From positions 23,498,001 to 23,562,000 of the forward strand of contig NC_135895.1 of the NCBI RefSeq assembly GCF_964194155.1: 64,000 nucleotides of DNA, written 5' to 3'. Below, one piece after another: positions 459-44,371 of the stretch (within the stretch, counting starts at the first letter, position 1; every line of letters begins with the position of its first letter). Both the position numbers and the translations under genes were made by a program. The notes under the pieces were generated by a model that was not told the origin of the DNA, did no database searches, and worked only from the letters and a program-made list of their open reading frames with translations. Origin of the DNA: Cetorhinus maximus (lineage: Eukaryota).

Positions 459-3400
459 GAATTCAAGCAATATTTAACCTTGTACAGTTCATTTATATAA
501 AAAGTGAATTTGATTGATGCTTATTTGAAAACCTTGGTTTTTTTTATGTATATATCTTCATCATTTGGAGTTTGGCACGTTACTGCCTCAACTGTGTTAA
601 TTCACATTCTGATCCCAGAATAAAATGTAGAAAATATAATATGCAATAATCACAAAGAAACAAATTTGTGAATGGCCAGAATCAACCTGGTTAGACTTGT
701 TTGAGTGGAATATACATGGTATCCTATCATGAACAAAGTGTAGGTGAATACGCATTGAACATTTTCTCTGTTCCCCCCTTTGTTCCTCCATGCTTCTGTC
801 CGTTTCTTTGCTTTTCTTGCTCCTTCTACTTGATTTTCTGTCACATTCCTTTTGTTTCTATGCACCCTTCAGCCAAGCCTCAAAGTTATAAATCTGAATC
901 TACTATATTTTTGCTGTGTTGTAAATGAGGTGCCTGTCAAGTTAAGGCAGCACTGAGTGATAAGTGAAAAGCATTAGCAAACCTGGATTTAATGCTAAAT
1001 TTAGAAATTTCTCAAGATGTATGCATAAAGCATTAGGTTAGCACTGGATTGTGACTGTAGATTCAAAATGAGGACAATTAATAATCTCAAAATATATAGA
1101 AAAACTTGGCTGCATTAAAGTGTATAATAGCAACTGTCACTCAATTCATTTCTTTCAGGGTCCTCACAGCCAGTAGGGAGGTGAAAATTTATGTATAATT
1201 GGAATAATAGTACCATTTTATAGCAAGACTTGTAACCGAAGTGACCTGTCAATATTACATTCATTCTCAATTCTGGCGCAAACAAACAGCTCCAAATGCA
1301 TCATATGGCCAAAGAAGCTGCTTGCCAATCATGTACCTCTTCCTACACATGACTGCACATAAATTTGTGTACAATCCAATAATAAAACCAAACAAAATTA
1401 TTATCAGCAAATATTATTTCCAACACTAAAAAATAACAGAATTTTAGGAGCAGTTTATTAATCTTTACACTTCAAAGTAAAAATTTAACCTCGCAGTGGG
1501 TTAAAATGTCATGATAGAGATGAATTTAGAGAGGATATTGTAGGTGAGATGCTTTTAATGTACAGTGTCCCTCCTAAATGGGGTAATGACAAGAACATCA
1601 GCTCTTAGGAAATACTTGTAGTTTTATCGTTCTATTCCTTCACCCTGGAGATTTTCCAGCTCAATTCTCCCCTCTCAGCAGGAAGCTGCTCAGCTACGTT
1701 ACCATTAGAAAATGAAGGTATTGGAAATCCCACAGATTTGCTTCCTTTCGACCCTTGATGCTGATTAAGAGGCATCCAAAGTGTGAAAATGTGATAACAC
1801 TGAGAATGCACGACAAAATCAGAGTCTGTATGTGAAATTCAGAGAGAAAAGGTGGTACTGCTACAGTATGTATCATGATTGCCATTTCTAATGTGCAAGT
1901 ATTATTTAGCTTGTAATTGAAATTCGGCAATTGGAATTATGATTTCACTTGTAAGTTACACTTGTAATGAAATATACTAAAATATATAAGGCGATGATGA
2001 ACTTAGCTTATTGCTTTCCTTCTGATATATTATCTACAGAACTCTAAGTAATTGCAGTGTCTTCACAAATCTGACCTGTTTCAAATTCTGTGCATGTAAA
2101 TATTTCAAGTCATGTATTTAGTCTCAAAGGATTTTAAACCACCAATGCTGAATTGTTTGATTTTTGCCCCAGGGAATTTCCATGCTACATCTGGCAAAAA
2201 CTTAACTAATTTGGCTTTTGTGTGGATAGTAACCCCAAACAGCACTGAATCATAATCTAAAAAAGACTTCTAAATTGACAAGCACCCAAGTGAAAATGTT
2301 GAATCAGAGAGGATGGAGTTTAGTCAAAATATGTGTCACTCTTCCTATGATCTCTACAGCTGTTTGAAAGTTTTATTGACTTCATTTTATTAAGTTAGTT
2401 GTATATGCAGAAAGCTGACTTTGTTTTGTCATCAGTATCTGAAAGATATTTTGGATCTATGGAATATTTTCATGGAATATTTTTGCTGAATTACATGAGG
2501 AGAGCCACGTGGTCAGTTGTGTTAAATGATTAGCGATGCATCTATACAGTAAGGTGATTCTGCATGCAAAAATGATTGTCTATTATACATTCAAGTTTAG
2601 CTTTCCGAGTGTTGGATATTATTTGTTTTACGTGCATTTCTTTTCCTGGTGGCAACAAAGGCAACCTGTTTTTATAATAACCACTGGAATACTAAGTGGA
2701 TTGATAAACTAATAAATATTTGTATTCTGATCTCATTTTCTTGTTTTAAAGTTATTAACCATAAATGATGGTTGGGATGAATTATTTTCATCAAAGAAAA
2801 TAGACATTTAATTGTGTGCATGCTTAATTAACAACAAATTCAGCTAAAGAACGTAGAGAATAATCTCAATAATCTATGTCTAAAAGATAACATTGGTTTG
2901 TAAGTGTACATGTCAATAAGTGGTCCTGGCATGCTGAAGGCTCAGCTAGAGTCAGTTTTTTCACAAGTATGGGAGGCTTTTTTTGGTAAATCCTCGGGAT
3001 TATGCAACAGCGTTGTTTGAAAAAGGTGGACATCCTGAAGAAATAAAATATGCTTTTAATGATTTTTAACCAAATTTTAAAATATGCTAGAATATTCTTT
3101 TAATGATCCTGCAGACATACACAAATCATAATTTTCAAAACCTCTTTGTAATACAGTCTGCATAAATTGGTACAAAACAAAAACAAAAATACCTGGAAAA
3201 ACTCAGCAGGTCTGACAGCATCTGCGGAGAGGAACACAGTTAACGTTCCGAGTCTGTATGACTCTTCAACAGAACTAAGGAAAAATAGAAAAGAGGTGAA
3301 ATATAAGCTGGTTTAAGGTGGAGGTGGGACAGGTAGAGCTGGATAGAGGGCCAGTGATAGGTGGAGATAACCAAAAGATGTCATAGACAAAAGGTCAAAG

Positions 3401-3655
3401 AGGTGTTGAAGGTGGTGATATTATCTAAGGAATGTGATAATAGGTGACATTGAGGGTAGAAAGCAGGATGAGCAAGGTACAGATAGCACTAGTGGGAGTG
3501 GGGTGGGGGAAAGGGATAGGCTAAAAGGTAGAGATAAAACAATGGATGGAAATACATCTAAAAATAATGGAAATAGGTGGGAAAATAAAAATCTATATGA
3601 ATTATTGGGAAAAAAAGGGGGAGATCGGAAAGGGGGTGGGGATGGAGGAGAGAGT

Positions 3656-6085
3656 TCATGATCTAAAATTGTTGAACTCAATATTCAGTCTGGAAGGCTG
3701 TAAAGGGCCTAGTCGGAAGATGAGGTCCTGTTCCTCCAGTTTGCGTTGAGCTTCACTCGAACAATGCAGCAGGCCAAGGACGGACATGTGGGCATGAGAG
3801 CAGGGTGGAGTGTTGAAATGGCAAGCGACAGGGAGGTCTGGGTCATGCTTGCGGACAGACTGAAGGTGTTCCGCAAAGTGGTCACCCAGTCTGCTTTTGG
3901 TCTCTCCAATGTAGAGGAAACCACATTGGGAGCAGCGAATGCAATAGACTAAATTGAGGGAAGTGCAAGTGAAATGCTGCTTCACTTGAAAGGAATGTTT
4001 GGGCCCTTGGACGGTGAGGAGAGGGGAAATAAAGGGGCAAGTGTTGCACCTTCTGCGGTTGCATGGGAAGGTGCCGTGGGAAGGGGTTGAGGTGTAAGGG
4101 GTGATGGAGGAGTGGACAAGGGTGTCCCGGAGGTAATGATCCCTGCGGAATGCCGCCAGGGGATGAATGGAAGATGTGTTTGGTGGTGGCATCATGCTGG
4201 AGTTGGCGGAAATGGCGGAGGATGATCCTTTGAATGCAGAGGCTGGTGGGGTGATAAGTGAGGACAAGGGGGACCCTATCATGTTTCTGGGAGGGAGAGG
4301 AAGGTGTGAGGGCAGATGCGCGGGAGATGGGCCGGACACGGTTGAGGACCCTGTCAACAACCGTGGGTGGAAAACCTCGGTTAAGGAAGAAGGAAGACAT
4401 GTCAGAGGAACTGTTTTTGAAAGTGGCATCATCAGAACAGATGCGACGGAGGCAAAGGAAATGAGAGAATGGGATGGAGTCCTTACAGGAAGCGGGGTGT
4501 GAGGAGCTGTAGTCGAGGTAGCTGTGGGAGTCGGTAGGCTTGTAATGAATATGGGTGGACAGTCTATCACCAGAAATTGAGACAGAGAGGTCAAGGAAGG
4601 GAAGGAAAGTGTCAGAGATGGACCATGTGAAAATGATGAAGGGTGGAAATTGGAAGCAAAATTAATAATTTTTTCCAGGTCCAGACGAGAGCATGAAGCA
4701 GCACCGAAGCAATCATCGATGTACTGGAGAAAGAGTTGTGGGAGGGGGCTGGAGTAGGACTGGAACAAGGAATGTTCCACATACCCCATAAAGAGACAGG
4801 CATAGCTGGGGCCCACACCTTTTATTTGGAGGGAGTGAGAGGAGTTTAAGGAGAAATTGTTCAGTGAGAGAACAAGTTCAGCCAGACGGAGGAGAGTAGT
4901 GGTGGATGGGGATTGTTCGGGCCTCTGTTCGAGGAGAGCCATCAGACCATCCTGGTGGAGGATGGAGATGTAGAGGGATTAGACACCCATGGTGAAGAGG
5001 AGGCGGTTGGGGCCAGAGAACTGGAAATTGTTGACATGATGTAGGGTGTCAGAGGAATCACGGATGTAGATGGGAAGGGACTGGACAAGAGGAGAGAGAA
5101 TGGAGTCAAGGTAGCAAAAAATGAGTTCCGTGGGGCAGGAACAGGCTGACACGATCGGTCTGTCGGGACAGTCCTGTTTGTGGACTTTGGGTAGGAGTTA
5201 GAAGCAGGCCATCCTAGTTTGGGAGACTATGAGGTTGGAAGCTGTGGAAGGAAGCTCTCCAGAGGAGATGAGGTCAGTAACAGTCCTGGAAACAATGGCT
5301 TGATGTTCAGTGGTGGGGTCATGGACCAGGGGGAGGTAGGAGGAAGTGTCTGCGAGTTGACGCTCAGCCTCTGCGAGGTAGAGGTCAGTGCGCCAGACAA
5401 CAACAGCACCACGCTTGTCAGCAGGTTTGATGACAATGTCAGGGTTGGACCTGAGAGAACAGAGTACAGCAAGTTCAGAGAGAGACAGGTTAGAGTGGGT
5501 GAGAGGAGCAGAGAAATTGAGATGACTGATGTCACACCAACAGTTCTCAATGAAAAGATCAAAAGAAGGTAAGAATCCAAAGGGAGAGGTCCAGATGGAG
5601 GGAGAATATTGGAGGCGGGTAAAAGGATGCGTTGAACGGGGAGAGGACTCCTGCCCAAAGGAGTGAGCACGGAGATGAAGGCGGCGAAACAAGAGTTCAG
5701 CATCATGCCAAGTATGAAATTCATTGAGATGAGGGCACAAGGGTATGAAACTAAGTCCTTTGCTGAGCACTGAACGTTCAGCATTGGAGAGGGGAAGGTC
5801 AGGGGGTATAGTGAATACACGGCCGGGGCTGGGATTGGAAGACGGGATGGGGACAGAGGGACAGGCAGGGGTGGAGGGTCCTGGATGGGCGTTGGTGTCG
5901 ATGAGTTGTTGGAGCTTGCGTTCCTTTGCACCTGAAAGAAAGAGGCAAAGTTTCTTGTTGAGGTATCGGATGAGACGAAGAATAAAATGAAACTGGGGGC
6001 ACGGGCAGCTTCGAAATAGGGTGTGGCGGTGCTGCTGGAAGGAGAGGTCGAGAGTGTACATATGGCAGCGCATGGCACTGAGTGT
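3656..6085 (-). pseudogene. Frameshifted PLE ORF: reverse transcriptase + GIY-YIG endonuclease (5'-truncated)
   Basis: ORF track shows IVIKPADKRGAVVVW (PLE RT N-terminal motif), GPSYACLFMG, QYIDDCF (catalytic), CNRRRCNTC and NLVYCIRCSQCGFLYIGETKSRLGDHFAEH (GIY-YIG). It is split across frames with stops. Confidence 0.9.
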
Positions 6086-7025
6086 GAGGGCACTAAGGGC
6101 CCTCAACCGTGTCCGGCCCATCGCCTGCGCATCCACCCTCACACCTTCCTCTCCCTCCCAGAACCATGATAGGGTCCTCCTTGTCCTCACTTATCACCCC
6201 ACCAGCCTCCGCATTCAAAGGATCATCCTCCGCCATTTCCGCCAGCTCCAGCACGATGCCACCACCAAACACATCTTCCCTTCACTCCCCTGGCGGCATT
6301 TCGCAGGGATCGTTCCCTCCGGGACACCCTTGTCCACTCCTCCATTACCCCCTACACCTCAACCCACTCCCACGGCACCTTCCTCTACATTGGAGAGATC
6401 AAACGCAGACTGGGTGACCACTTTGCAGAACACCTTCGGTCTGTCCGCAAGCATGACCCAGACCTCCCTGTCGCTTGCCATTTCAACACTCCACCCTGCT
6501 CTCATGCCCACATGTCCGTCCTTGGCCTGCTGCATTGTTCGAGTGAAGCTCAGCGCAAACTGGAGGAACAGCACCTCACCTTCCGACTAGGCACTTTGCA
6601 GCCTTCCGGACTGAATATTGAGTTCAACAATTTTAGATCATGAACTCTCTCCTCCATCCCCACCCCTTTTCTGATCCCCCCCTTTTTTTTCCAATAATTT
6701 ATATAGATTTTTCTTTTCCCACCTATTTCCATTATTTTTAGATGTATTTCCATCCATTGTTTTATCTCTGCCTTTTAGCATATTTCGATCCCTTCCCCCA
6801 CTGCACCCCCACTAGGGCTATCTGTACCTTGCTCGTCCTGCTTTCTACCCTTAACGTCACCTATTAGCACATTCCTTAGATAATATCACCACCTTCAACA
6901 CCTCTTTGTCCTTTTGTCTATGATATCTTTTGGTTATCTCCACCTATCACTGGCCCTCTATCCAGCTCTACCTGTCCCAGCCCCCTTAAACCAGCTTATA
7001 TTTCACCTCTTTTCTATTTTTCCTT

Positions 7026-7063
7026 AGTTCTGTTGAAGAGTCATACGGACTCGAAATGTTAAC
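7026..7063 (+). ncRNA. Minimal type I hammerhead-like motif in PLE terminus (U6 variant)
   Basis: AGTT-CTGTTGA-A-GAGTC[ATACG]GACTC-GAAA-TGTT-AACT. Helix I is AGTT/AACT and stem II is GAGTC/GACTC. A mirror copy lies on the minus strand at ~3238-3275. Confidence 0.55.
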
Positions 7064-7921
7064 TGTGTTCCTCTCCGCAGATGCTGTCAGACCTGCTGAA
7101 TTTTTCCAGGTATTTTTGTTTTTGTTTTGGATTTCCAGCATCCGCAGTTTTTTGCTTTTATAAATTGGTACACGTTGGTTATACTGATCACTTTGTAATA
7201 TGGTCCACAGGTGTTTTTCATGCAAAGAATTATACTGAGATTCCCACTGAATGCAGCTGAAAACTTCGAAGCAGCACTCTAAAGAAGCTCGAAAACAGGA
7301 CTATAAAAAGACACTTAGTCACCTGCTCTGCATTGTGACTCACAACAGTAGATATGGTTCTTATTCAGCATTGAAGGTAAACGTCCATCATGTAGCTGAT
7401 GAAACGTCTGAGGCTCAGTGTAACATTTTAGAACATTTTCCTCTATGGCCTGGAAAGGATTTTATTAGAGTGCTACAATGCAGCAAGGCTGAAAGTGTGG
7501 TTTGTTCGTTGGTGGGGCCCCATTCAGAGCAGCTGTCGGTTTGAGTACTTTTGCATGTAACATCAGCTTCGAGACATTATGGGCATTCCATAGTTGTTCA
7601 TTTCAATTTCAGTCACTGTACTTGGCAGAGGCTTGGCTAAAACCTACATATAGGTGCCATCAGTACCTACATCAACTCAAGTTTTATCAACTTTTAGTGA
7701 CAGCTTGGCAGATCAAACCTTAGCAGACAGATTTGCGGGAGGGTAGACTTCGTGATGCTCTCCCTTCCTTGGAGAGACAGTCTGAGACAGTAAGTGTCAC
7801 AGAGAGAGCTCTCTCTCACAAGGTAGTCAGGGAGGATGGGAGGCTGAGGTATTGGCATAAGCGCTAGGTATACAACCTGCAACAGAGGCAGTAGGATTGA
7901 AATTAGCTTAAGGATAGTAAA

Positions 7922-8069
7922 CTTTTTTAAGAATTCAGTTATGGGATGTGGGTGTCACTGGCTAGGCCAACATTTATTGCCCATCCCCAAATTCCCTTAT
8001 TCAGAAGGCATTTAAGAGTCAACCACATTGCTGTGGGTCTGGAGTCACATGTAGGTCAGACCAGGTAAG
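7922..8069 (-). mobile_element. 3' fragment of the tRNA-headed SINE family seen at 41168-41560
   Basis: Shares GGGATGTGGGTGTCACTGGCTAGGCC..ATTTATTGCCCATCC and AAGAGTCAACCACATTGCTGTGGGTCTGGAGTCACATGTAGG with 41190-41330 and 57380-57440. Confidence 0.75.
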
Positions 8070-8992
8070 TTAATCATGTAAATCGGCTGCCTGCTTCAGA
8101 ACTGTAAACATTTAGAGATGTAACATGTTTTAAGCAAGTAGAAAGGCAGGGAAACTGGGTGGGGGATGGTGCTGGAGTATAAAGGAAGGTCTGTGATAGA
8201 GTGCAAGGCAGGAATGATTAAATAATGAAAGGGATTGTACATTAAATATATTGATTAACACTTGGCTTAGTGAATTTGTACATTGGAACACCAAGCTCTG
8301 GCATCATGGAGTAGCAGAACACAGGTTTAATCTCTTAAATTCAGTTACTTGATTTAACAAGATGCCACATTGCCCAGATGCCTTCCTAAGTGGAAAGGAA
8401 GAAAATCTAAGAGTTAACCGAAGCTGCTGTTGCACACTTCCTATTTACTGATTCTGAGCTAATGTATTGATGATCTGAGACTAGTTCCCCTGCTTGTCCT
8501 CTCAGCCGTAGTTAGTACACGCCTTAGAAAGAGAATGAAAGTAGATGGAATTAACAATCCAATAAAAGAATTTGACATTCTTATATGCTCTGTCCTATTC
8601 AGTTATTTTGAAGTTAACAGGCAGGAAATTGATAATGTCAGTTCTGCGTTACTACACGAGACTAATTTTGGCTAAGTTTAAATGTTTATCCCTTTAATTC
8701 CAACTTCTTGTTCATCTGCTGTAAAGAAATAAATTACAACTAAATTAAAGTTTAACAGTGTTCTCCAGAACTATCATAAACCTCTCAAGTTTCAGTTGAC
8801 TAGAGTAACTTCCAAATTTAAGCTCAATGAAACAATGCATCACACTTTAGCATCTTTAATGAACACTTGAAATCACTCTCAATTGCAATTGTTGTAGCAA
8901 GTTTCATTGAATAACTATTTTACATAAAGCATGTGAAAAAGGTATTTTTTAATTAAATTCTCATATCTTGTTTCAAATTTATAACTAAAAAA

Positions 8993-9307
8993 CAGTCGTT
9001 TGGTAGTACAGAGCTTCAGTTTTGCTGAAAAAAGAGTCTTGTAATCAAAGCTTTTCATCTTTCACTCATCAGGATAGCTTACAAGAATTTTCCAACCATA
9101 ACAGGGGAACAAAAATTTATACTGCCTGAGAAGAGAGTGATGGTTCGTTGGCAAATGGACTCTGATTGGTGGAGGCGTTGTCATGAAGAATGCAGCATTG
9201 AACAGTTAATTGTTAATTGTTGTTCCCCATTATGGTTGGAAAATTCTTGTGAGCTATCCTGATGAGTTCCAGATGAAAAGCTTTGATAGCATGTCTCTTT
9301 TTTCAGC
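8993..9307. mobile_element. Short fold-back element with hammerhead motifs (second PLE-type family)
   Basis: Inverted arms at ~9022-9112 and ~9220-9309, an unpaired ~28-nt tail at 8993-9020, and TSD AACTAAAAAA at 8983-8992 and 9308-9317. Confidence 0.75.
9253..9290 (+). ncRNA. Minimal type I hammerhead ribozyme motif with canonical core
   Basis: GCTATC-CTGATGA-GT[TCCAG]AT-GAAA-AGCT-TT-GATAGC. It has a perfect 6-bp helix I, a CUGAUGA...GAAA core and palindromic AGCT in place of helix III. Stem II is weak or decayed. Confidence 0.65.
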
Positions 9308-10699
9308 AACTAAAAAATTAGAAGGAAAAGCTCAATAAGTGTTTCTTTTGATTCATTTGTTTCTTTCTGATACCAAATTTATCATTATATTCACATTAGG
9401 TTGGTCACAGGATCTTTTTTATAATTGACAGAATATAAGTTAGAAGTTAGATTATCCAACAAAGATTCAACACATATCTGCATTAAATTCTTATATCATT
9501 TCTATACTTAACAGTGTCATGACTGAGCAACAATCTGAATTATTATTATACCTATGAAACCATTACATGTTATTATTTTTATTTTTTCAGTTCACACAGA
9601 GAAATTTTGTTTTTATTGGTTGTTGTTTGGTGATCTTCAAGGGAAACCATTAAATTAGTGACAGATTTTTGCCATCCTTAGTCTTCAACCGCATTGTTTA
9701 TACTAATTCATCATTATACTAATTACATTTGTTAAATATATTCATATTATTTGGTTAGTGTCAATCTCTAAATATATTGCTTGCTGCTTGGAGAAATTTT
9801 TCATTAGTAAGTCTTCTCCGCTTTCAATAAATGTGGAGTCGTTCATCTTTTTCTTCAGCATTCCTACATTGATGCCTTATCCTACTGAATCATATTGAAC
9901 AAATATTTTAGATTAACACTTCAATAAATTTGAATAAAGTATTCTTTACTTATGTGAGTACAGTTCCAAAAAATATGAGAGAACTGTATTAAAAATTATT
10001 AATTGCTTTTCATTGGCCTAGTTTGAAGAGTCGCAGTCTATTGAAAAGCAGATGTTAAGCAAGGCAAGCCTATACAACAGCAACATCTAGTGGTTAGAGG
10101 ATATTACAGAAATAAAAGAATTACATATTTATCTTCTCACATTTGGACTTGTGTTAAAAAGCATTCTATTATTATTTTCTACCACATTTAATAAAAATGC
10201 TGTTCTGTAAATATCCCACTAAAATTTCACTTTTTAAATGTGACAACTTAACAAATGTCAAATGAAATGAATTGAAGATAATTAATAATGTTATGGAAAT
10301 AAAGCCAAGATTGACCCAATTACAGTAAAGTTGTATATGTGTTACACATTATTTTATATGTTCATAAGTGTAATCTCATTTAGCAATGTTCACTCTTATG
10401 AAGTGAAAAAAAATTATTTTTTAACTATAGCCCAAGGGCATTTATTATGAATAATGCCTATTAATGCCTCCCTGTTGACTGGTACATCTTTAGTGTGTAC
10501 CATGACATTTTTAGACTCAATGAAGGAAGGAACCTGATTTCTGTTACATTTGCATTGAGTGGTTCCAATTAGGAAAATAAAAGGCAAGTTACCTTCATAG
10601 AAACCCAGTTCTTGTTTTTCCTGTAATGCTGATGAATCTGGGACTGATATTTTGAGATTGAACTGATTTAGTTATCTCTATATATATACATAACCCTTT

Positions 10700-16589: not shown

Positions 16590-16940
16590 GTGCTTTGCAG
16601 GCAGCAAATTGTTTATGAAATGCAGTCACTCATCTTGTAGGCAAAGTGAGCAACTAAGTTGCGCACAACAAAGTACACAAGGAGCAGGATGACTGGCTAT
16701 TAATCTATTTTGGTGGCACTAGTAATGGAATTAATATTAACCAGGTTTTCAGAACTCCTTGTTCCAAAAAGCAATATTTAATCTTTTAAATCCACCTGAG
16801 CAGATAGAACTGTTTTGCATCTCATCTGAAAGTTAGCACTGCTGACAATTCAACACTCCTCAATATATTCAGTGCCAACGAGGATTATATGATCAGCCTT
16901 GAAGTGAGGGTTAAGTCCATAGCCTTCTGAGAGGCCAACG
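16590..16940 (-). mobile_element. Old Deu-domain-like SINE remnant
   Basis: Contains GTTGCGCACAACAAAG and CATCTCATCTGAAAG..CAC..CTGACAAT blocks shared with the other copies. Confidence 0.45.
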
Positions 16941-16964
16941 TGCTGCCAGTTGGAGTTAATCACT

Positions 16965-19478
16965 TTCACCCCCTTTTGCACCTCCTCTCCCTCCTCATCT
17001 TCCCCCTTCCCTCCTCCACTCTTCCTCTCCCTCTGCCTCTCCCCCACCTCCCCTTCCCTCCTCCTCTCTTCCCCCTCCCTCTCCCCCTCGTCTCCTCCAC
17101 CTCCTCCCTCCCACCTCTTCCCCCACAACCTCCTCCCCTTCCCTCCTCCTCTCTTCCCATCTCCTCTCCTCCTCCCTACCACCTCCTCCCCTCCCCATGC
17201 CCTTCTCCTCTCCTCTCCTCTACCTCCTCCTACCCATCCTCTCCCTCCACCACCACGTCCTCTCCCTCCACCACCACCACGTCCTCTCCCCCCACCACCA
17301 CCTCCTCCTCTCCCCCCACCACCACCACCTCCTCATCTCCCCCCACCACCACCTCCTCCCCTCCCTCCCCAAACTCTCCCACACCTCCACCTCTCCCCCT
17401 CTTCCTCTCCCCCACCTCTCCTCCTCCCCTTACCACATCTTCTCCCTACCCCCCTTCCTCCCCCACCCCACGCCTCCTCCCGCCCACCACACCTCCCCCT
17501 CCCCCCAACTCCTCCCCCACCTCTTCCTCTCCCCCACCCCACCCTCCTCTCCCCCCACCTCCTCCTCTCCCCCACCCCACACTCCTCCTGCCCCCCAACT
17601 CCTCCTCCCCCTACATCCTCCTCCTCACCCCCACCTCACACTCCTCCTGCCCCCCACCTCCTCCTCCCCCCAACCTGTTCCTCTCCCCCACACCTCCTCC
17701 GCCCCCACCTCCCCTCCCCCTCCTCTGCCGCCCACCCGACCTCCTCCTCCTCTGTTCCTCCTCCTCCTCTCCCCCCACCTCCTCCTCTTCTTCTCCCCCC
17801 AACTTCCTCCTCCTCTCCCCCCCATCTCCTCCTCCTCCTCTCACCCCCATCTCCACCTCTCCCCCCCACCTCCTCCTCCTACTCGCCCCCACCTGTTCAT
17901 CTCCACCCCACCTCCTCCTCCTCTCCCCCCACCTCCTCCTCTCCCCCCCACCTCCTCCTCCTCCTCCTCTCCCCCTCACCTCCTCCTCCTCCTCTCCCCC
18001 CCACCTCCTCCTCCTCTACCCCCACCTCCTCCTCGCCTCTACCTGCTCCTCTGCCTCCCACCTCCTCTCCCTCTGCCCCACTTCTTCTTCCCCCTCCTAC
18101 TCTCCCTCCACCTCCTCCTCTCCCCCCACCTCCACTTCCTCTCATCCCCACCTCCTCCTCTCACTCTCCCCCCACCTCTTCCTCCTACTCACCCCCACCT
18201 CCTCCACCCACACCTGCTCCTCTGCNNNNNNNNNNNNNNNNNNNNNNNNNNNNNNNNNNNNNNNNNNNNNNNNNNNNNNNNNNNNNNNNNNNNNNNNNNN
18301 NNNNNNNNNNNNNNNNNNNNNNNNNNNNNNNNNNNNNNNNNNNNNNNNNNNNNNNNNNNNNNNNNNNNNNNNNNNNNNNNNNNNNNNNNNNNNNNNNNNN
18401 NNNNNNNNNNNNNNNNNNNNNNNNNCCCCCTCCTCCACTTCTACCCCTCTGCTCCAACCCCTTCGCTCCTCTTCTCATCCCCTCTCCTCCTCTTCTTCAC
18501 CCCTCGTCTTTCCCCGTCTCTTCCTCCTCTTCTCCCCACTCCTCCTCTCCCCCTCTTCTCACCCCTCTCCTCCCTCACCCTCCTGCTCTTCTCCCCCCTC
18601 TCCTCCTCCTCTTCTCCCACCCTCTCCTCCTCCTCCTCTTCTTCCCCTCCTCGTTTCCCCCTCTCCCTCTCCTCCCCTCCCCCCTCTCCTCCTCCTCTTC
18701 ACCCCCCTCCTCCTCCTCCTCTTCACCCCCCTCTCCTCCTCTTCTCCCTCTCCTCCTCCTATTCTCCCCCCTCTCCTCCTCACCCCCTCCTCCTCTTCCC
18801 CATCTCCACCCCTTCTCCTCTTCTCCCCCCTCTCCAACACCTCTTCTCCCCACCCTACCCTCCTCCTCTTCTCCCCACCCTACCCTCCTCCTCTTCTCCC
18901 CACCCTACCCTCCTCCTCTTCTCCCCACCCTACCCTCCTCCTCTTCTCCCCACCCTACCCTCCTCCTCTTCTCCCCACCCTACCCTCCTCCTCTTCTCCC
19001 CACCCTACCCTCCTCCTCTTCTCCCCACCCTACCCTCCTCCTCTTCTCCCCACCCTACCCTCCTCCTCTTCTCCCCACCCTACCCTCCTCCTCTTCTCCC
19101 CACCCTACCCCTCCTCCTCTTCTCCCCACCCTCCTCTTCACCCCTGTTCCTCTTCTTCTCCCCCCTCACCTCCTCCTCTCCCCCTCCTCTTCCCCCTCTC
19201 CCCCTCACCTCCTCCTCTCCCCCTCCTCTTCCCCCTCTCCTCCACCTCTTCACCCCCCTCTCCTCCCCCCCACTCCTCTTCTCCCCCCTTTCCTCTTCAC
19301 CACCCCTCTCCTCCTCCTGTTCCTCCCCCCCCCCCCCCGCTTCTCCACCCCACCCCCGCTTCTCCACCCCACCCCACCATTCTCCTCCCCACCCCCCCTC
19401 TTTCTCCTCCCCACCCCCCCTCTTTCTCCTCCCCACCCCCCCTCTTTCTCCTCTATCACCTCCTCCTCCACTCCACCC
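16965..19478. repeat. ~2.5 kb polypyrimidine (C/T) low-complexity tract containing an assembly gap (18226-18425)
   Basis: Almost G-free on the + strand, with CCT/CTCC/CCAC units and 200 N. Confidence 0.95.
18841..19110. repeat. Perfect 25-bp tandem repeat CTCTTCTCCCCACCCTACCCTCCTC, about 10-11 copies
   Basis: Exact 25-nt periodicity read directly from the sequence. Confidence 0.9.
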
Positions 19479-19490
19479 CAGAGTAACGGC

Positions 19491-19760
19491 AATAAAAACA
19501 AAAAAACTACTGCGGATAAAAACAAAAAACTACTGCGGATGCTGGAAATCCAAAACAAAAACAGAATTACCTGGAAAAACTCAGCAGGTCCGGCAGCATC
19601 GGCGGAGAAGAAAAGAGTTGACGTTTCGAGTCCTCAGGACCCTTCAGCAGAACAGTTCCAGAACAGAACAGGTGCAGAACTGTTCTGCTGAAGGGTCCTG
19701 AGGACTCGAAACGTCAACTCTTTTCTTCTCCGCCGATGCTGCCGGACCTGCTGTGTTTTT
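19491..19760. mobile_element. Miniature fold-back PLE derivative with 13-bp TSD, abutting the SNX7 promoter
   Basis: TSD CCAGAGTAACGGC at 19478-19490 and 19761-19773. Near-perfect arms at 19571-19658 and 19677-19764. The sequence matches the terminus of the element at 41615-42678. Confidence 0.9.
19682..19718 (+). ncRNA. Minimal type I hammerhead-like motif (C6 variant), mirrored on the minus strand at ~19617-19653
   Basis: GTT-CTGCTGA-A-GGGTCC[TGA]GGACTC-GAAA-CGTC-AAC. Stem II is 6 bp, palindromic ACGT replaces helix III, and the putative cleavage triplet is GUC. Confidence 0.6.
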
Positions 19761-19773
19761 CCAGAGTAACGGC

Positions 19774-20235
19774 TCCCTACCCGCGCGCCCCGTTTGAAGT
19801 TGTTTCCGTCTCAGCGCGCCCATTTCCGCTCCTGCGCACTGGGCAGCCCTGCGGCCGGTTGACGCTCGCAGGCACACAGGCGCGCACGCGCGGAGGGGGG
19901 GGGCGGAGCCGTTGCCGAATCCGACACATCAGCGGCCTCCGGAGGAACGGACGGAGGAAAGGAAGATGGAAGCGGCTGGCTCCGCCGGCAGTAAAAGCTG
20001 CAAAGCGGCCGCCCCGCACCCGCTCTCTAAGGACGTGCTGGGTTTCGAGGATGACGATGAGGACGATGACTTGGAGGTGTTCAGTAAGGTCAGTCCGTCC
20101 GCCCGCTGGCCAGCAGTAAGTTGTCGGGGGCCGGGGCTCCTCCCAGGTCAACGGTCTCCCAAGTTCGGTGTGGGCACTGTGAGGAGACCCCCACACAACA
20201 ACCTGCTGTCCGGGGGGACCGGGACCGGGACCCTG
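19774..20235 (+). promoter_or_regulatory. CpG-island promoter/5' region of SNX7
   Basis: Sharp CpG enrichment around exon 1. ETS-like CATTTCCG at 19821-19828, NRF1-like GCGCACGCGC at 19882-19891 and GC box GGGGCGGAG at 19900-19908. Confidence 0.8.
19966..20088 (+). CDS. SNX7: Sorting nexin 7, coding exon 1
   Basis: AAG-ATG-G Kozak context. MEAAGSAG...KDVLGFEDDDEDDDLEVFSK matches the SNX7 motif EVLDLDEDEDDLEVFSK. Donor AAG|GTCAGT, phase 0. Confidence 0.9.
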
Positions 20236-24990: not shown

Positions 24991-25029
24991 TGGCCTAGTG
25001 GAAGATATTTTTATATTAGACCCACAGTA

Positions 25030-33089: not shown

Positions 33090-34664
33090 TTCGCCCTTGT
33101 TGTAAGATGTATGAAATTTAGGTACCATAAACTACGCTATACAAGTTGACCTTTGAAGCCTCCAAAAGTCCTTTCAAAAACGGGGGTCGAGTTATTTGCG
33201 GAGAATGAAACGTGAACCACGGCTGTGGGTGTTCGCCACTTTTAAATATAGAAAAAAAGGTGCATATTTCCACTCTTTGGCTTATTGATGCACGCATCCA
33301 AAGGTTGAACTATGGACATTAGACCCCCTGATATTACTGCGATGTAGTGTTAATTCTTTGCCGGTACCTCTTCCTCTTACTGGTTGTATGGGATCTGAGC
33401 ATGTTCCACATTAATAAGCTGCAACCTTTGTGCAGGCCACCAGGGCACCTATTCCACACATTGTTGACCCACAACTTTACTACACTCTCATCCATCCAAC
33501 CGTTGTCATGGACACACACACAAACTCCTACGCACAGTTTGATTTTCTGCAGGGTTTTACGTTTGAAAATTGCCATAAGATTTAATTTAATTCTGTTGGC
33601 CATTGGGGTTCAAAATACTCAGGGGCAGTAGATGAATTTGCCCTCAAACCCCCAAAAAGCCCTGGGAAAATCAATCATGGGGGCAACCAATGAAAGAAAA
33701 TTTGCCCCTGTACATTAGAGAGCCAGAATTTCTGAGAAGCTGTTCCTTCAACCACAGATCCTGCCTCTCCCAATCTTGCTGCTCCTCCAGAGACAGAATT
33801 TGCAAGGGCAGAAGACCCGGGTGTGAATTTTATTTTCTCTCTCAAACGGTTGCTCAATGGGACAGCTTTTCCAGTGAAAAGTTGTCCCATTGAGCAACTG
33901 TTTGGGGGAGAAAATTGCAACCCAGGCTTTTAAAGTACTATTTACTGTTACCCTTTCGGATCAGCCTTACCCTGTTTCAAGCTCACTGATAATGGTAGCT
34001 CATCAAGCTCAGCCAATTTATCAACTGTCAGCATGCTATTACCAGGTAGGAATTTGTGTTACTCAAATGGTTTTCTGACTGTAGTGAATGAAGGTCCTGA
34101 TGTTTCAAAAGGGGATTAAATTTTATAAATGGACACTCCTGGCATGGGGCTTTGTGAGCCAGGAATGTCCATTAGGTGTGGAGGTAGTGCAGTCTTTGGG
34201 ACTTCTCATTTTAATGGATGAAAAATTCTGTTGATCCTAAATTCCTAAAATGTACCTTCTTTTCTCCCACCCCTTTCAATATTTTATTAGGATGGCAGAA
34301 AATTGGCGAATATACAGTAACCTAATGTACAAAAAACGTAACTTCCATGATATATTGAAATTGTTTTATTTCATGAAAAATTGGATTTGTTGTGTACATG
34401 TTTTTAATTTGCATATCATTTTTAAGGTACTGTGAGTGGCAACTCAGGCTTTTTTTTCCCCTATGTCATTGCGTGTCTTGTGGCAGAGACCGATTGTTGT
34501 TTTCCTAATTGATTTTGACCAACTCAGCACAGACTTGGATTCATAATTAGTGCTAAATATGTTTACCCGCTGCTCCACCGGTGGTCTTCATAGAATCTTC
34601 TTGAGTGAGTTTTGGAAACATGGAAAGGAAAATAGTGTGGGCCTTTTCACTTAGATTGAAAGTA

Positions 34665-35687
34665 TTGTTACGGACAAGGGAGAGAGACGGATTGAACCCC
34701 CTAATTCTTCTAACCTGTGATAATCAGAATGGTTTAATTTTGATAAGGCAGAGGTGTGTTCCCTATGTTCATGTGTAATCAGTTTTTTTTTAAACAAAGT
34801 CATTTGCAGCAGGCTTTCTCGGACTTTTAAACCAGGCACACTATCCCATATAACGTTTGTTATTACTACACAAACACATACCTGCTTAAGAAGGTACGGT
34901 AAGAGAAAGGAGTTTTGTTTTTACAAATATTAAAACCAAACAGAATAATAGTTCACATGAATATCAAAGTACAGTGAGAGGGGTTCTTTCACTCAGCAGT
35001 TAAAATACAGGCTAATCCAGGTAGCTGAAGACAGGGTTTCATGGTGTTTTCTTAGAAATAAGATATGTGAGAAAGGCAGCCTTGATGCTTGTAACCAGAG
35101 AACCAGTTTACTTTTCCAGCAAGTTTCAGGTCTTTTGGAAACAGGTTTTGAGGAGGCCTCAAACTTTAAGCATTATGGCTTGGTTAATAGGCTTTCTACA
35201 GTGCTGTGTTGTCTGCAAGCAATCAGGACTTATAATGAAAAGGCCTTCTGAAATGAAACAGTTTTTCGTTCATCTGACAACTGGCCATTGATACACGAGG
35301 GAAACAATCAATAATCTGTTCGTGTTAGCGAAGTAGCTTCCATCTCCCATGCCCAAAACCATCAACATACATTACAGGCAGATAGGAATCCTTAACACTT
35401 CCTTATTTAGTAGCTCCTTTTTGTTACCTGGCAATTCTGGAGACCGCACGTCTGAGGCTTGCTTGTCTTTGCTGTTTTGGGGTGAGTTCTGACAATGTCA
35501 GATGTGATATTCCACAATGCTGTCGTCATTATAACCCGCTTATAGAAACTTGATGCTTGGTCATCTTACAGTTCCAAAAGTCAGATGATCTGTGCCAGTC
35601 ATTTTAAAAGTAAAAATATGTGTGAATTTTTAAAAGGAAGTTTTTTTTTAACAATTTGTAATACACTCACATCTGTTCGGCATGACA
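34665..35687. mobile_element. Possible solo LTR
   Basis: TGTTACG...CATGACA termini. The ends resemble 21864-22875 and 61327-62091. Confidence 0.35.
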
Positions 35688-36065
35688 GCATCAATTCATT
35701 TTGAAAAAGGAAATGATAATTAATGCATAATAAATAGCAAACACTTTGCTTGTGATCTTAAATTGTACGTATTGGGAGATGCATTAGGTTTATGCATGTT
35801 GCAAAAGGAAAAGTACGGAGTTTGTCATGTCACTTTGAAACAGTGCAAGGAGGAGTGCCAAGGGAGAATTTGGGTTAAATGTTTTACTTTTGTGCTCATG
35901 GCATGTTAAGTACCCGAGGTGCACAATTTTCTGCTCAATAGGTAGAAGCAACATTTTATCTCTTTTGATCTGGCTGCTTCTGAAAATATCTATCTAAGTT
36001 CCTGTGGACTTCTTTTCTAGCTGCCTTCCCAGCACTGCAAAATTAAGGGGAAAAGCGTATTCTCT

Positions 36066-38808: not shown

Positions 38809-41167
38809 TTTCCATTCTGTTGCCAGTCCAGATCCCTTCCAAAGGATTGTATTGAATAATGGATTTAAATGCTATGGAGGGATTTGAAAATCATAGAATA
38901 GAATTTTATTGTCAAAATTTTGCTCAATTGGGAGCTAACGTAGGTCAGTGACCACAGGCACAATAGGGGAACGGGACTTGCTGCAAGTTTTGGATGACCT
39001 CAAGATTTTTTTAATTAATTCATGCGATGTAGGTGTCGCTGGCTAGGCCAGCATTTATTGCCCATCCCTATTTGTCCTTGAGAAGGTATTGGTGAGCTGC
39101 CTTCTTGACCGCTGCAGTCCACAGTGCACCCACAGTGCTGTTAGGGAGGGAGTTCCAGGATTTTGACCCAGTGACACTCAAGAAACGATGATATATTGCC
39201 AAGACAGGATGGCAAGTGGCTTGGAGGGGACCTTTCAGGTGGTGGTGTTCCCATGTATCTACTGCCCTTATCCTTCTAGATGGTAGTGGTCATGGGCTTG
39301 GAAAATGTTACCTAAGGAGCCTTGGTGAGTTCCTGCAGTGCATCTTATAGATGGGGTATACTGCTGCCTCTGTGTGTCGGTGGTGGAGGGAGTGAATATT
39401 TGTGGATGGGATGCCAATCGAGTGGGCTGCTTTGTCCTGGATGGTGTCAAGCTTCTTGAGTGTTGTTGAAGCTGCACTCATCCAGGCAACTGGAGAGTAT
39501 ACCATCACACTCCTGTCTTGTGTCTTGTCGATGGTGGACAGAGTTTGGGGAGTCAGGAGGTGTGTTACTTGCTGCAGGATTTGAAGCCTTTGACCTGCCC
39601 TTGTGGCCACAGTATTTATATAGTTAGTCCAGTTCAGTTTCTGGCCAATGGTAACCCCCAGGATGTTGGTATTGGGGTATTCAATGATGGTAATGCCATT
39701 GAATGTCATGGGGCGATGGCTAGATTCTCTCTTGGAGATGGTCATTGCCTGGCACCTGTGTACCGTTAAATTTACTTGCCACTTGTCAGCCCAAACCTGG
39801 ATATTGCCCAGGTCTTGCTGCATTTGGACGTGGACTGCTTCAGTATCTGAGGAATTGCAAATAGTGCTGAACATTGTGCAATCGTCAGCGGACACCCCCA
39901 CTTCTGACCTTATGATGGAAGGAAGGTCATTGATTAAGCAGTTGAAGATGGCTGGGCCTAGGACATTACCCTGAGGAGCTCCTGCAGTGATACCCTGGAA
40001 CTGAGATGATTGACCTCCAATAGCCACAACCATCATCCTTCATGCTAGGCATGACTCCAATCAATGGGGATCAGGAGGAAAACTCTCCGCTTTGTCCAGT
40101 CTTGCTCGGGCTCCATGATGCCACACTCTATCAAATGCTGCCTTGATATCAAGGCCAGTCACTCTCATCTCACCTCTGGAGTTCAGTTCTTTTGTCCATG
40201 TTTGAACCAAGGCTGTAATGAGGTCGGGAGGTTAGTGGCCCTGGCAGAAGCCAAACTGCGCATCCGTGTACAGGTTATTGCTAAGTAAGTGCTGCTTCTT
40301 AGCACTGTTGATGATCCCTTCCATTACTGATCGAGAGGAAACTGATGGGGTGGTAATTAGTCAGGTTGAATTTGTCCTGCTTTTTGTGTACAAGACATAC
40401 CTGGGCAATTTTCCACATTGCTGGGTAGATGCCAGTGTTGTAGCTGCACTGGATCAGCTTGGCTAGGGGCATGGCACGTTCTGGAGCACAAGTCTATTAC
40501 TATTGCTGGAATATTGTCGAGGCCTGTAGCCTTTGCATTATCTAATGCCTTCAGTTGTTTCTTGATATCATGTGGAGTGAATCGAATTGCCTGAAAACTG
40601 GCATTTGTGATGCTGAGGACCTCCAGAGGAGGCTGAGATAGATTGTCCCCTCGGTACTTCTGGCTGAATATTGTTGCAAATGCCTTATCTTTTGCACTGA
40701 TGTGCTGGGCTCCCCTATCATTGAGGGTGGGGCGTATTGGTGGAGCCTCCACCTCTAGTTCGTTTAATTGTCCATTCACGACTGAATGAGGCAGGATTGC
40801 AGAGCCTAGATCTGATTCGTTGGTTGTGGAATTGCTTATCTCTGTCTATTGCTTGTCGCTTACGCTGTGGGCACGCAAGTAGTTCTGTGTTGTAGCCTGG
40901 TGCTGCCCCGGCATGCCTTCCTGCACTCTTCATTGAACCAGGGTTGATCCCCTGGTTTGGTGGTCAGTGTAGAGTGGGGGATATGCTGGGCTGTGAGGTT
41001 ATAGATCGTTCTTGTGTACAATTCTGCTGCTGTTGATGGCCCACAGTGCCTCATGGTTGCTAGATTTGTTCAAAAGCTGACCCATTTAGCACAGTGGCAG
41101 TGCCACACAACAAGATGGGGGCTACCCTGAATCTGAAGATGGTACTTGTCTCACTCCTACCAATACT

Positions 41168-41560
41168 TATTTTAAAATTATTTTGTGAGGTGTGGGTGTC
41201 ACTATTAAAGCCAGCTTTTGTTGCCCATCCGTAATTGCCCTTGAACTGACCTTGCTAGGTCATTTCAGAGGATAGCTAAGAGTTAACCACATTGCCGTGG
41301 GTCTGAAGTCATGTGTAGGCCAGATCCGGTAAGGATGTCGGATTTCTTTCCCTAAAGGCCATTAGTGAACCAGATGGTTTTTTGTGACAATCGATAGTTT
41401 CATGGTCACTATCACCGAGACTAGCTTTATATTCCAGATTTATTAACTGAATTCAAATTCCACCAGCTGCGGTGGGATTTGAACCTATGTCTCCAGAGGA
41501 TTAACCTGGGTCTCTGGATTACTAGTCCAGTGACATTACCACTACATCACCATCTTCCCC
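41168..41560 (-). mobile_element. tRNA-derived SINE with LINE-derived 3' tail
   Basis: Minus strand has A box TGATGTAGTGG (41549-41539), stem-loop CTGGA-CTAGTAA-TCCAG and B box GGTTCAAATCCC (41485-41474). The last ~65 nt match the LINE 3' end. Confidence 0.85.
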
Positions 41561-41614
41561 TGTCACGGACAGATGCATCTGTGGCAGTAGGTTGGCGAGG
41601 ATGAGGTCAAATAG

Positions 41615-42678
41615 AAACAGAATTACCTGGAAAAACTCAGCAGGTCTGGCAGCATCGGCGGAGAAGAAAAGAGTTGACGTTTCGAGTCCTCATGACCCTT
41701 CAGCAGAACTGAGTAAAGTTAGGAGAGGGGTGAAATATAAGCTGGTTTAAGGTGGGGGGTGGGGTGGGGGGAGAATAGTTGTGGGGGGTGGTGGTGGTAG
41801 TAGGGACAAGCAAGCAGTGATAGGAGCAGATAATCAAAAGATGTCACAGACAAAGTAACAAAGATGTGTTAAAGGTGGTGATATTATCTAAGAGAATGTG
41901 CTAATTAAGAATGGATGGCAGGACACTCAAGGTACAGCTCTAGTGGGGGTGGGGTGGAAAGACTGACAGGGTATTATAGTTATAGATTTAAAAATAATGG
42001 AAATAGGTGGGAAAAGAAAAATCTATATAAATTATTGGAAAAAACAAAAGGGAGGGGGAAGAAACGGAAAGGGGGTGGGGATGGAGGAGGGAGTTCAAGA
42101 TCTAAAGTTGTTGAATTCAATATTCAGTCCAGAAGGCTGTAAAGTGCCTTTACTAGGACTGAATATTGAATTCAACAACTTTAGATCTTGAACACCCTCC
42201 TCCATCCCCACCCCCTTTCCGTTTCTTCCCCCTCCCTTTTTTTCCAATAATTTATATAGATTTTTCTTTTCCCACCTATTTCCATTATTTTTAAATCTAT
42301 AACCTGTAATGCCCTGTCAGTCTTTCCACCCCACCCCCACTAGAGCTGTACCTTGAGTGTCCTGCCATCCATTCTTAATTAGCACATTCTCTTAGATAAT
42401 ATCACCACCTTTAACACGTCTTTGTTCCTTTGTCTGTGACATCTTTTGATTATCTGCTCCTATCACTGCTTGCTTGTCTCTACTACCACCCCTCACCTTA
42501 AACCAGCTTATATTTCACCCCTCTCCTAACTTTACTCAGTTCTGCTGAAGAGTCATGAGGACTCAAAACGTCAACTCTTTTCTTCTCCGCCGATGCTGCC
42601 AGACCTGCTGAGTTTTTCCAGGTAATTCTGTTTTTGTTTTGGATTTCCAGCATCCGCAGTAGTTTTTTGTTTTTATAT
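41615..42678. mobile_element. Fold-back PLE derivative (~500-bp inverted arms) with 14-bp TSD in SNX7 intron 1
   Basis: TSD ATGAGGTCAAATAG at 41601-41614 and 42679-42692. Arms at 41615-42130 and 42156-~42633, plus a one-sided tail. Encodes the PLE C-terminus GLNIEFNNFRS. Confidence 0.92.
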
Positions 42679-43915
42679 ATGAGGTCAAATAGGTTTTTCC
42701 CCCTCTTTAATTCCCTTACTGCCTGCTGCAGACCCAGTGTAGCAGCTGAGTCTTCTAGGACTTGGCCAGCTCAGTCAGTAGTGGTGCTTCCGAGCCACTC
42801 TTGGTGATGGATGTTGAAGTCCCCCACTCAGTAAACTCTGCGCCCTTGCCACCCTCAGTGCTTCTTCCAAGTGGTGTTCAACATGGAGGAGTACTGATTC
42901 ATCAGTTAAGGGGCGCGGTACATGGTAATCAGCTGGAGGTTTTTGCCCATGTTTGACCTGACGCCATGAGATTTCATGGGATCCAGAGTTGATGTTGCGG
43001 ACTCCCAGGGCAACTCCCTTCCAACTGTATACCATTGTGCCCTCACCTCTCCTGGGTCTGTCCTACCAGTGGGACAGGACACACCCAGGGATGGTGATGG
43101 TAATGTCTGGGACATCACCTGTAAGGTATAATTCCATGAGTATGACTATGTCCGGCTGTTGCTTGACCTGTCTTTGGGAGCCTGAGAAAGCTCAGTCAGA
43201 TTAGTTAAACAAGTTGCTTTCAGCAAATCCATGCTAGTGTTCCTTAATTAGTTCCTGTCAAAGTAATGGTGCGGCGAATGGTGCTGCCTGTAATGTTTGT
43301 GTGAATAGTGCAGCAACTTCAGGTGAGGTACAGATCTACCGTTAAATGTCAGTATCCATACATTGCAATCAGAGTTTTGCCACTGCGCTGTTAGTTTTGC
43401 CAAAATGGCATTTCGCAATCTGCCTCACCATTGGCATGCTTTGATTGTTGTGAAGCTGCTGTATTTGTGAGAACTAAACCCAATGCAAATATTTAGCTAG
43501 CAATCAGTAGTGCAAATACCCTTTTAGTGATGTGATAACTGCTAATTTCTGCCAATCAACCTCTGGAACTGGAAATTAACTGATTGGTTAGCTGATGTGG
43601 AGACTGTTCCTTCGGGTTTTAAATTTTTAGGTAAGACTTTAAAATGTCAAATTTAAAAAAACCTTTTGTCCTTTTTTTCTCCTTCTCAACTCGATCACCC
43701 TTTTCCAATTGAATTTTCCCTGTTTTCCCCCTATTTGACATTGAATTTCCCCTCCAACTTTCTGCAATTCATTAAAGTGAAGCTACGGGAAATCCGATTG
43801 TAGCTTCGATGAACTAGAAAACTGGGTAGTGTTGCCTAAAAAATTTATTTCTAAGTTGGTAACAAAAAGCTACAGTATTGGTCTTCAATTTTTTAATGAT
43901 TTGTCATATTTGAAT

Positions 43916-44095
43916 AGAAAATGCTGGAAATACTCAGGTCAAGCAACATCTGTGGAGAATAAAAACAGTTCTGAAGTAAGGCCACCGATCTGAAAGGATA
44001 ACTTACATGCTGCTTGGCTTGCTGAGTATTTCCAGCATTTTCTGTTTTTACTTCAGATTTCCAGCATTCGCTGTATTTTGCTTTTGTATTAGTTC
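43916..44095. mobile_element. Older miniature fold-back PLE derivative with 12-bp TSD
   Basis: TSD TCATATTTGAAT at 43904-43915 and 44096-44107. Arms AGAAAATGCTGGAAATACTCAG / CTGAGTATTTCCAGCATTTTCT. Decayed hammerhead AGTT-CTGAAG...GAAA...AACT. Confidence 0.8.
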
Positions 44096-44371
44096 TCATA
44101 TTTGAATTTTGATCACATTTTGTCCTTGTTTGCCAATTTCAATTTGTAAAATTCAATTCAAAACTTCACAACACACAACTCCTGGGTTGTACTTTTATTC
44201 AAAATATAACAATACAAATTAATACACCTGTTCATTGAGTGTAAAAGAATAGGATCTTAACAAGATCAAATTATACTTAAGTTCCATGCATGGCTTCATG
44301 CAATAACTACTTATGCTAACAGGATTTCTATTTTGATCTCAACAGTCCTTTTTTTTTCTGCCTTCCAACAG

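Follow-up and report, generated by a model that had tools for sequence, protein, structure and literature searches.

Five two-armed insertions

The stretch of DNA analyzed here, referred to as the window, covers 64,000 nt of the genome of the shark Cetorhinus maximus (NC_135895.1, positions 23,498,001 to 23,562,000, forward strand). It contains five Penelope-like element (PLE) insertions, E1 to E5, which belong to at least two families. In all five, two arms are joined head to head with their 3′ ends outward, and only one arm carries a tail. Among the related copies sampled from the 3.99-Gb genome, inverted insertions almost always pair a tailed arm with a tail-less one, a pattern that probably reflects priming of reverse transcription at both ends of one staggered cut. 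The parts of the five insertions are given below by window position. Element coordinates such as -138 are counted backwards from the last tail base (window 42676), and hammerhead motifs were scored with a descriptor of the minimal type I form (core boxes, stem II, palindromic stem III, and stem I of at least 4 bp).

3162-3174: left target site duplication (TSD) of E1, 13 bp; second copy at 7160-7172
3175-6086, minus strand: tail-less arm of E1, 2.9 kb, with an open reading frame (ORF) for reverse transcriptase (RT), a Cys linker, and GIY-YIG, 5′-truncated and frameshifted
3238-3276, minus strand: left hammerhead motif of E1; U at core position 6 and GGAA in place of the GAAA box
6087-6095: centre of E1, 9 nt aligning to neither arm
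6096-7159, plus strand: tailed arm of E1, 1.06 kb, with an internal deletion of ~148 nt at 6381-6383
7026-7064, plus strand: right hammerhead motif of E1; core position 6 is U, stem III palindrome broken
8983-8992: left TSD of E2, 10 bp; second copy at 9308-9317
8993-9215, minus strand: tailed arm of E2, from a second, unrelated terminus family; tail of ~30 nt at 8993-9021
9215-9307, plus strand: tail-less arm of E2
9253-9290, plus strand: hammerhead of E2; the core is the canonical CUGAUGA, stem III is palindromic, and stem I has 6 bp (full descriptor match)
19478-19490: left TSD of E3, 13 bp; second copy at 19761-19773
19491-19515, minus strand: tail-end duplication of E3, 25 nt
19516-19653, minus strand: tailed arm of E3, starting at the preferred 5′ site (-137); hammerhead at 19653-19616 with the C6 core intact and stem I of 3 bp
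19654-19681: centre of E3, a 28-nt filler in which the terminus start is copied in short pieces; it occurs once in the genome
19682-19760, plus strand: tail-less arm of E3, also starting at -137; hammerhead at 19682-19719
41601-41614: left TSD of E4, 14 bp; second copy at 42679-42692
41615-42149, minus strand: tail-less arm of E4, extending ~20 nt deeper into the element than its partner
41672-41710, minus strand: left hammerhead of E4; C6 core, base inserted after A9, full descriptor match
42156-42678, plus strand: tailed arm of E4; hammerhead at 42538-42576 with G12 changed to A, tail at ~42640-42678
42536-42542, plus strand: initiator (Inr)-like TC-A-GTTC of E4, also the 5′ strand of hammerhead stem I
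43904-43915: left TSD of E5, 12 bp; second copy at 44096-44107
43916-44095: E5, an older relative (77% to E1/E3/E4); centre single-copy
46778-46838, plus strand: a sixth main-family terminus-like fragment, single and decayed (75%), absent from the list of an earlier note on this DNA

Sequence comparison gave exact TSDs of 13, 10, 13, 14, and 12 bp for E1 to E5. These are far above chance, since a 10-mer common to two random 40-nt stretches of the window turned up in 0.3% of 3000 trials and a 12-mer in 0.07%. E1, E3, E4, and E5 have a common terminus (77 to 97% identity; the main family), and E2 has no match to those four. In the tail-less arm of E1, the terminus stops ~35 nt short of the tail end. 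The left arm of E5 is short, tail-less, and without a hammerhead, and its right arm is tailed, with one decayed hammerhead near 43966-44004. The two-armed share in the window (5/6) is high against ~40% in our genomic sample. All five elements are ordinary dead copies.

The positions and TSDs that the earlier note had given for the five insertions are confirmed by the exact TSDs and the head-to-head arms. Its reading of them as one series stands insofar as a single rule governs two-armed copies, but they are not one family, as the E2 terminus is unrelated. The one-sided tail is present on all five. Its upper value of 80 nt does not hold, because E3 combines the usual ~37-nt tail, a tail-less arm ~20 nt short, and the 25-nt tail-end duplication, which likely arose by re-priming at the start. 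Besides window 19491-19515, duplicated tail ends occur at loci L037, L066, and L147, which suggests slippage or re-priming at the outer start site.

A single ORF with RT followed by a C-terminal GIY-YIG domain, as in endonuclease-bearing (EN+) PLEs, was found for the E1/E3/E4 family only. A relative at L148 has a 596-amino-acid frame with RVT_1 (E 5.5e-7, above the cut-off) and a weak C-terminal GIY-YIG match (E 0.091). The E1 ORF aligns to this frame at E 8e-150 and has a weak GIY-YIG match of its own (E 0.035). The ORF of E1, the 4-kb copy of the earlier note, is 5′-truncated and frameshifted and, relative to L148, has lost 6 residues in the RT region; E1 is not autonomous, because about the first 100 codons are missing and the frame is shifted. 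A PDB sequence search with the L148 ORF returned zero matches. Terminal repeats (direct or inverted), an optional tail of 30 to 40 nt, and TSDs, the other marks of EN+ PLEs, are also present, as are partial tandems. E2 is a putative PLE, assigned by its tail, TSD, hammerhead, and layout. E1 and L148 carry a C-x4-C-x2-C motif within the stretch linking RT to endonuclease, which we compared with a clade motif whose exact spacing we assume. This linker suggests that the E1/E3/E4 family may belong to the Neptune or Nematis clade. A zinc-finger-like Cys motif at this place is a feature of these two clades in the available text of PMC8557442.

The earlier note had described a minimal hammerhead in each terminus. 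Motifs are indeed present, but the left arm of E5 has none and its right arm a decayed one, and the descriptor is fully matched by two of nine copies (9253-9290, plus strand, and 41710-41672, minus strand), with 0 hits in 5 shuffles. The left hammerhead of E4 has a stem II of 5 bp, a palindromic stem III (ACGU), and a stem I of 4 bp. Both E3 copies keep the core, with a stem I of only 3 bp because the arms begin one base inside it, and the remaining five copies are damaged. An Rfam search of the window gave no hammerhead match at E ≤ 1. In the main family, core position 6 (window 42545 and equivalents) is U or C and is often unlike between the two arms of an insertion. Exact 22-mers of this family number 14,141 with U and 4,637 with C genome-wide, the canonical A version not being counted. 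In the available text of Cervera and De la Pena (2014; PMC4209133), the minimal type I hammerheads of metazoan PLEs likewise have no stable helix III, a palindromic 15.2-16.2, an extra base between 9 and 10.1, and a helix I of 4 bp; the U or C at core position 6 differs from them. A natural A6C hammerhead variant has been described in what is available of PMC7151607.

End pairing and arm lengths among genomic copies

Our main sample was drawn from contig C1, where 95 of the first 100 C6 22-mer matches listed yielded 83 insertions. A total of 38 were inverted (39 to 40% after weighting, as two-armed copies have two chances of being sampled) and 45 were simple, 20 of them tailed and 25 tail-less. 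In 200 kb of unselected DNA, 7 of ~24 terminus-bearing insertions were inverted (hand count, with singles not checked for very short partners). The earlier note had taken fold-back insertion as the rule in this genome and named a majority of non-palindromic copies as the evidence that would speak to the contrary; such a majority is what both counts give.

The 3′ ends of sampled copies form two groups, at -3 to 0 and mostly at -44 to -28, corresponding to two fixed ends ~37 nt apart, and the arms of inverted copies end at the same two places as simple copies do. Of the 38 inverted copies, 37 combine one tailed and one tail-less arm (36 by script; L221 by inspection). If ends were chosen independently at the 20:25 ratio of simple copies, at least 36 mixed pairs of 38 would be expected with a probability of 1.8e-9. 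The same pairing held in 17/17 further pairs (the short end of L244, at -21, is borderline) and in the E2 family, where 10 resolved pairs among 29 loci obey it and one more is unclear at the locus edge. All 13 close opposite-strand pairs of C6 22-mer matches are head to head. A single TSD surrounds both arms in 33/38 inverted copies (range 9 to 18 bp, mostly 10 to 16 bp). Insertion lengths form a continuum down to the smallest copies (minis). One simple mini occurs with identical flanks at three places on contig C32 (L096, L099, and L100), which therefore represent a segmental duplication and not three insertions.

The two arms of a copy are also coupled in length. Arm-length tests covered 35/38 inverted pairs (L144, L221, and L224 were left out). 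The 5′ ends of the arms are correlated (rho 0.82), and 7 of 18 pairs with both arms past the hotspot described below lie within 20 nt of each other, versus 1.65 expected. In these 18 pairs the tail-less arm is the longer in 11 and the tailed arm in 4; in E1 the lengths are 2.9 kb (tail-less) versus 1.06 kb (tailed).

Short copies have a preferred 5′ end. In the main sample 20/83 arms start at -141 to -136, versus 12 in the 59 bases upstream, a 16-fold excess. A second sample in which the hotspot site was not required (82 of the first 100 matches) gave 25/82 by script and ~20/82 after read-through variants were removed by eye. Genome-wide, the preferred 5′ end of short copies is at -138/-137, within TC-A-GTTC, which resembles the Inr consensus. 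None of 13 hotspot arms has a partner that extends past the hotspot (11.4 expected), and at L275 two successive passes through the terminus both stop there. The hotspot is the 5′ strand of stem I, whereas stalling of RT at a stem takes place on its 3′ side; run-off at an RNA end is thus more likely than a stem stall. Hammerhead cleavage as the source of mini 5′ ends was rejected, with 1/82 copies starting at the cleavage site. At L335 (G000:C1:12481874-12482799), tandem repeats of ~94 nt span the interval between the 5′ hotspot and the inner start site and look as if RT had re-primed after each run-off.

Sequence variants connect the two arms of a copy. Heritable variants are common to both arms 68 times, versus 8.9 by permutation (75 pairs), and at 43 heritable sites in 45 pairs the arms disagree 44 times, versus 327 expected if pairing were random. 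Private junctions recur in both arms at L251, L257, L261, and L266. Core position 6 is unlike between the arms in 4/22 pairs (hand count) and in 3/17 within one haplotype, a frequency above what mutation should produce but below that of random pairing. Retrovirus-like strand transfer is not supported as a source of arm differences, since disagreement at heritable sites is about as low in the leader (12 against 75 expected) as it is upstream (32 against 251 expected). An arm asymmetry at -125 proved to be an artefact of choosing top hits that carry E4's own variant.

Probable priming at both nicks and competing explanations

We consider it probable that EN+ PLE insertions of this kind form when both ends of one staggered cut prime reverse transcription, at an outer (tailed) and an inner (tail-less) start site on the RNA, and the cDNAs are joined head to head. 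Read inward from the TSD, each arm runs in the direction expected of a cDNA whose primer was its own target end. Each nick would use a different internal start site of the element RNA, a protein dimer would serve both nicks, and a simple copy would result where only one priming succeeds. Minis such as E3 may be run-off (“strong-stop-like”) cDNAs, primed in the 5′ copy of the terminus, with RT reaching the RNA 5′ end at the Inr-like site; each mini was likely formed anew, as a dead end. In L1 twin priming, the second target strand primes an inverted segment and the 3′ end is not duplicated, whereas here it is. Retroviral minus-strand strong-stop DNA arises when RT, having been primed internally, reaches the RNA 5′ end and runs off; unlike that case, no tRNA primer or integrase is involved here.

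Biochemical work on a lizard PLE, Anolis Poseidon PAc, offers a close parallel (Frangieh et al. 2024, PMC11167929, as far as its available text goes). In vitro, the protein cleaves and extends both target strands, and its two internal start sites lie next to each other and define the tail, as the two ends bracket it here. It is predicted to be dimeric and depends on ORF sequence located 3′ of these sites, and the hammerhead in the terminus, or its cleavage, is dispensable for insertion. The two primings that we propose at one site in vivo would match this result. The systems differ in their start sites (U-rich tracts here, AC-rich in PAc), in the ORF start (~37 nt after the tail here, inside the hammerhead in PAc), and probably in clade, with the Cys linker here suggesting Neptune. 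Inverted products are not explained in the available text on PAc. An intron across both start sites of the shark element (donor-like site at 42621, acceptor-like site 130 nt downstream in L093) was rejected because the spliced frame closes after 61 codons and the long ORF begins upstream of the acceptor-like site; the joint is also absent from contigs guessed to be RNA-derived.

Several points weigh against priming from both nicks as set out above. The biochemistry comes from a Poseidon element, while the main family here looks Neptune-like, and our main sample comes from a single chromosome and is limited to the C6 variant of one family, to which a quarter of the exact termini belong. One inverted copy (L224) is complex and fits neither pairing class clearly. 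Three of 18 off-hotspot centres are symmetric within 3 nt, as self-priming also predicts. The RNA 5′ end at the hotspot is a putative one, read from genomic DNA copies, and a single start site for all templates fits poorly because none of 15 long copies that include the ORF start begin there. Template number also seems mixed, with both arms usually from one source and sometimes from two. At L225 (G000:C1:70413500-70419500) and L209 (G000:C1:26826800-26833800), two subfamilies lie under one TSD, so that each of these copies apparently drew on two RNA templates.

The literal sense of fold-back in the earlier note is snap-back or self-priming, in which one cDNA (or antisense RNA) folds back and is copied into the mirror arm. 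For rotifer PLEs, self-priming was put forward on the basis of palindromes seen at inverted junctions (PMC3846280, in its available text), and near-symmetric off-hotspot centres (L118, L169, and L219; L231, L238, and L247) would suit it, as would the variants that the two arms usually have in common. A snap-back copy cannot, however, outgrow a tailed cDNA template, and the tail-less arm is the longer in 11 of 15 unequal long pairs as well as in E1; snap-back from a tail-less cDNA, in turn, cannot supply the tail. The tail-less ends of inverted copies are those of the 25 simple tail-less copies, and the arms of L225 and L209 come from different subfamilies. Snap-back is therefore excluded as a general route and unlikely as an account of these copies, though it might account for the symmetric minority. 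Another reading is a chance meeting of arms, whether as independent insertions or as extreme 5′ truncations of random extent. The different subfamilies joined in L225 and L209 speak for it, as does the strong 5′ truncation of PLEs in the available account (PMC8557442). Against independent insertion stand the single TSD around both arms in 33/38 copies, the strict tail asymmetry, and the coupled lengths. Random truncation, which the earlier note had offered for the smallest copies, disagrees with the 16-fold excess of 5′ ends within six bases, at the one preferred site where minis stop. We regard chance meeting as very improbable.

The earlier note had also raised the idea that the smallest copies are a non-autonomous ribozyme element class able to propagate itself. 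On this reading small palindromes would be transcribed and reinserted whole. An identical 29-nt centre, the simplest one, occurs at 22 loci, and 21/36 centre-selected loci have a one-base centre, four of them with the same arm asymmetry at core position 6. Relative to the tail, however, that base is found in either polarity (16 A to 5 T among the 36 loci, counted by eye with complex centres excluded), the tail-less ends of these loci vary from -28 to -66, and the same asymmetry at position 6 is found in long copies. Centres are all different in 13/13 sampled hotspot palindromes, and those of E3 and E5 are single-copy (the E5 search was made in a less sensitive DNA mode), so that no shared centre with a fixed polarity was found at many loci. 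Minis also end at the tail and are missing the downstream ORF-start RNA, a type of sequence that the lizard protein requires, and a read-through RNA of E3 is predicted to form one long hairpin (-182.8 kcal/mol) that buries both ribozymes. Recurrent formation fits the mini data better than propagation, which appears improbable. The MITE-like look of these hairpins had been attributed to retrotransposition, in agreement with our finding that the arms are the PLE 3′ end. [quoted passage not shown] Such an origin is hardly credible here, given arms that are the 3′ end of an RT/GIY-YIG element, unequal ends, a continuum of lengths, and TSDs of 9 to 18 bp, in place of equal terminal inverted repeats, a uniform length, a fixed TSD, and a transposase partner.

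Head-to-tail units, genomic surroundings, and known elements

A different kind of short unit was found where copies include the start of the ORF. Among 28 distinct ORF-start loci (L249-L276, from 30/185 matches), 13 contain short units in which 65 to 174 nt of the ORF start are fused to the terminus, at -137 to -338. Some units are repeated head to tail up to 2.5 times with the same junction, as in L257 (G000:C1:217259062-217262102), L251, L258, L261, L264, L266, and L275. Six junctions fall at +101 to +109, and most are private. The units still have the hammerhead, the two start sites, and the region downstream. It is possible that they derive from circular RNA or from end-to-end jumping. If a non-autonomous form spreads at all, these units are more plausible candidates for it than the hairpins, although with mostly private junctions the spread itself is putative.

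These units resemble non-LTR (long terminal repeat) retrozymes, which consist of head-to-tail tandem units, each with a hammerhead. The five window elements, being head to head, lack that arrangement, and the related loci L257, L258, L261, and L264 have it. Metazoan non-LTR retrozymes, in the available text of Li, Clavereau, and Pollet (2026; bioRxiv 10.64898/2026.07.22.740005), are likewise short, non-coding, hammerhead-bearing derivatives of a PLE terminus; they are head-to-tail tandems, unlike the window elements.

The window also contains exons of a PX-domain (sorting-nexin-like) gene on the plus strand (19966-20090, 44372-44554, and 50164-50328), which we presume to resemble SNX7. Its first coding exon lies ~200 bp downstream of E3, which sits where a GC-rich region borders, and E4 and E5 are in its first intron. 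E3 is adjoined by a C/T-rich simple repeat of 2.6 kb (16900-19480) with a 25-nt tandem array and a 200-N gap. In the E2 family, CCAAT-like boxes and TATAAA lie ~48 nt upstream of the hammerhead core (9113-9160, minus strand), a possible RNA polymerase II promoter. Two more hairpins (33800-33941 and 57044-57113) have sub-threshold Rfam microRNA hits and no match to the tested PLE termini; the second sits inside a repeat resembling a long interspersed nuclear element.

Much of the layout described here is already published. In the available texts, complex insertions of EN+ PLEs consist of an inverted, 5′-truncated copy and a one-sided tail of 30 to 40 bp (Craig et al. 2021, PMC8557442; Arkhipova et al. 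2013, PMC3846280; Schostak et al. 2008, PMC2377424). The same sources have in common with our copies the inverted arms, single tail, TSD of ~9 to 14 bp, RT followed by GIY-YIG, and Inr-like terminus. Minimal hammerheads have also been reported, including opposite-strand pairs 100 to 700 bp apart (PMC4209133, in its available text). Unlike the insertions in those EN+ PLE accounts, most copies here are without a direct pseudo-LTR and ORF. What our counts of ends add to the accounts, as far as available, is the strict pairing, the coupled arms, and the one preferred 5′ end. A literature search (subscription papers, Repbase, and supplements not covered) found no published count of tailed/tail-less pairing, arm coupling, or the 5′ hotspot.

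The origin of inverted and tandem PLE insertions has been left undefined (PMC8557442) or put down to self-priming (PMC3846280) or endonuclease resolution in the available parts of these sources and PMC2377424; our end statistics favour priming from both nicks. They also give direct predictions for the existing in vitro PLE system, which makes the mechanism testable. PLE hairpins can be misannotated as MITEs or as microRNA precursors, for which Rfam gives sub-threshold hits. A more tentative possibility extends priming from both nicks to the whole cycle. One protein dimer might start reverse transcription at both nicks, using two fixed sites on the RNA. Linear RNA with priming close to its 5′ end would yield strong-stop hairpins. 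Short RNAs retaining the binding region at the ORF start would be copied round repeatedly, as circular RNA or through exact end-to-end jumps, and would yield head-to-tail hammerhead units with a private junction in both arms. These units, rather than the hairpins, would be the birthplace of retrozymes. If this is true, shark genomes would hold a countable record of the Penelope cycle.

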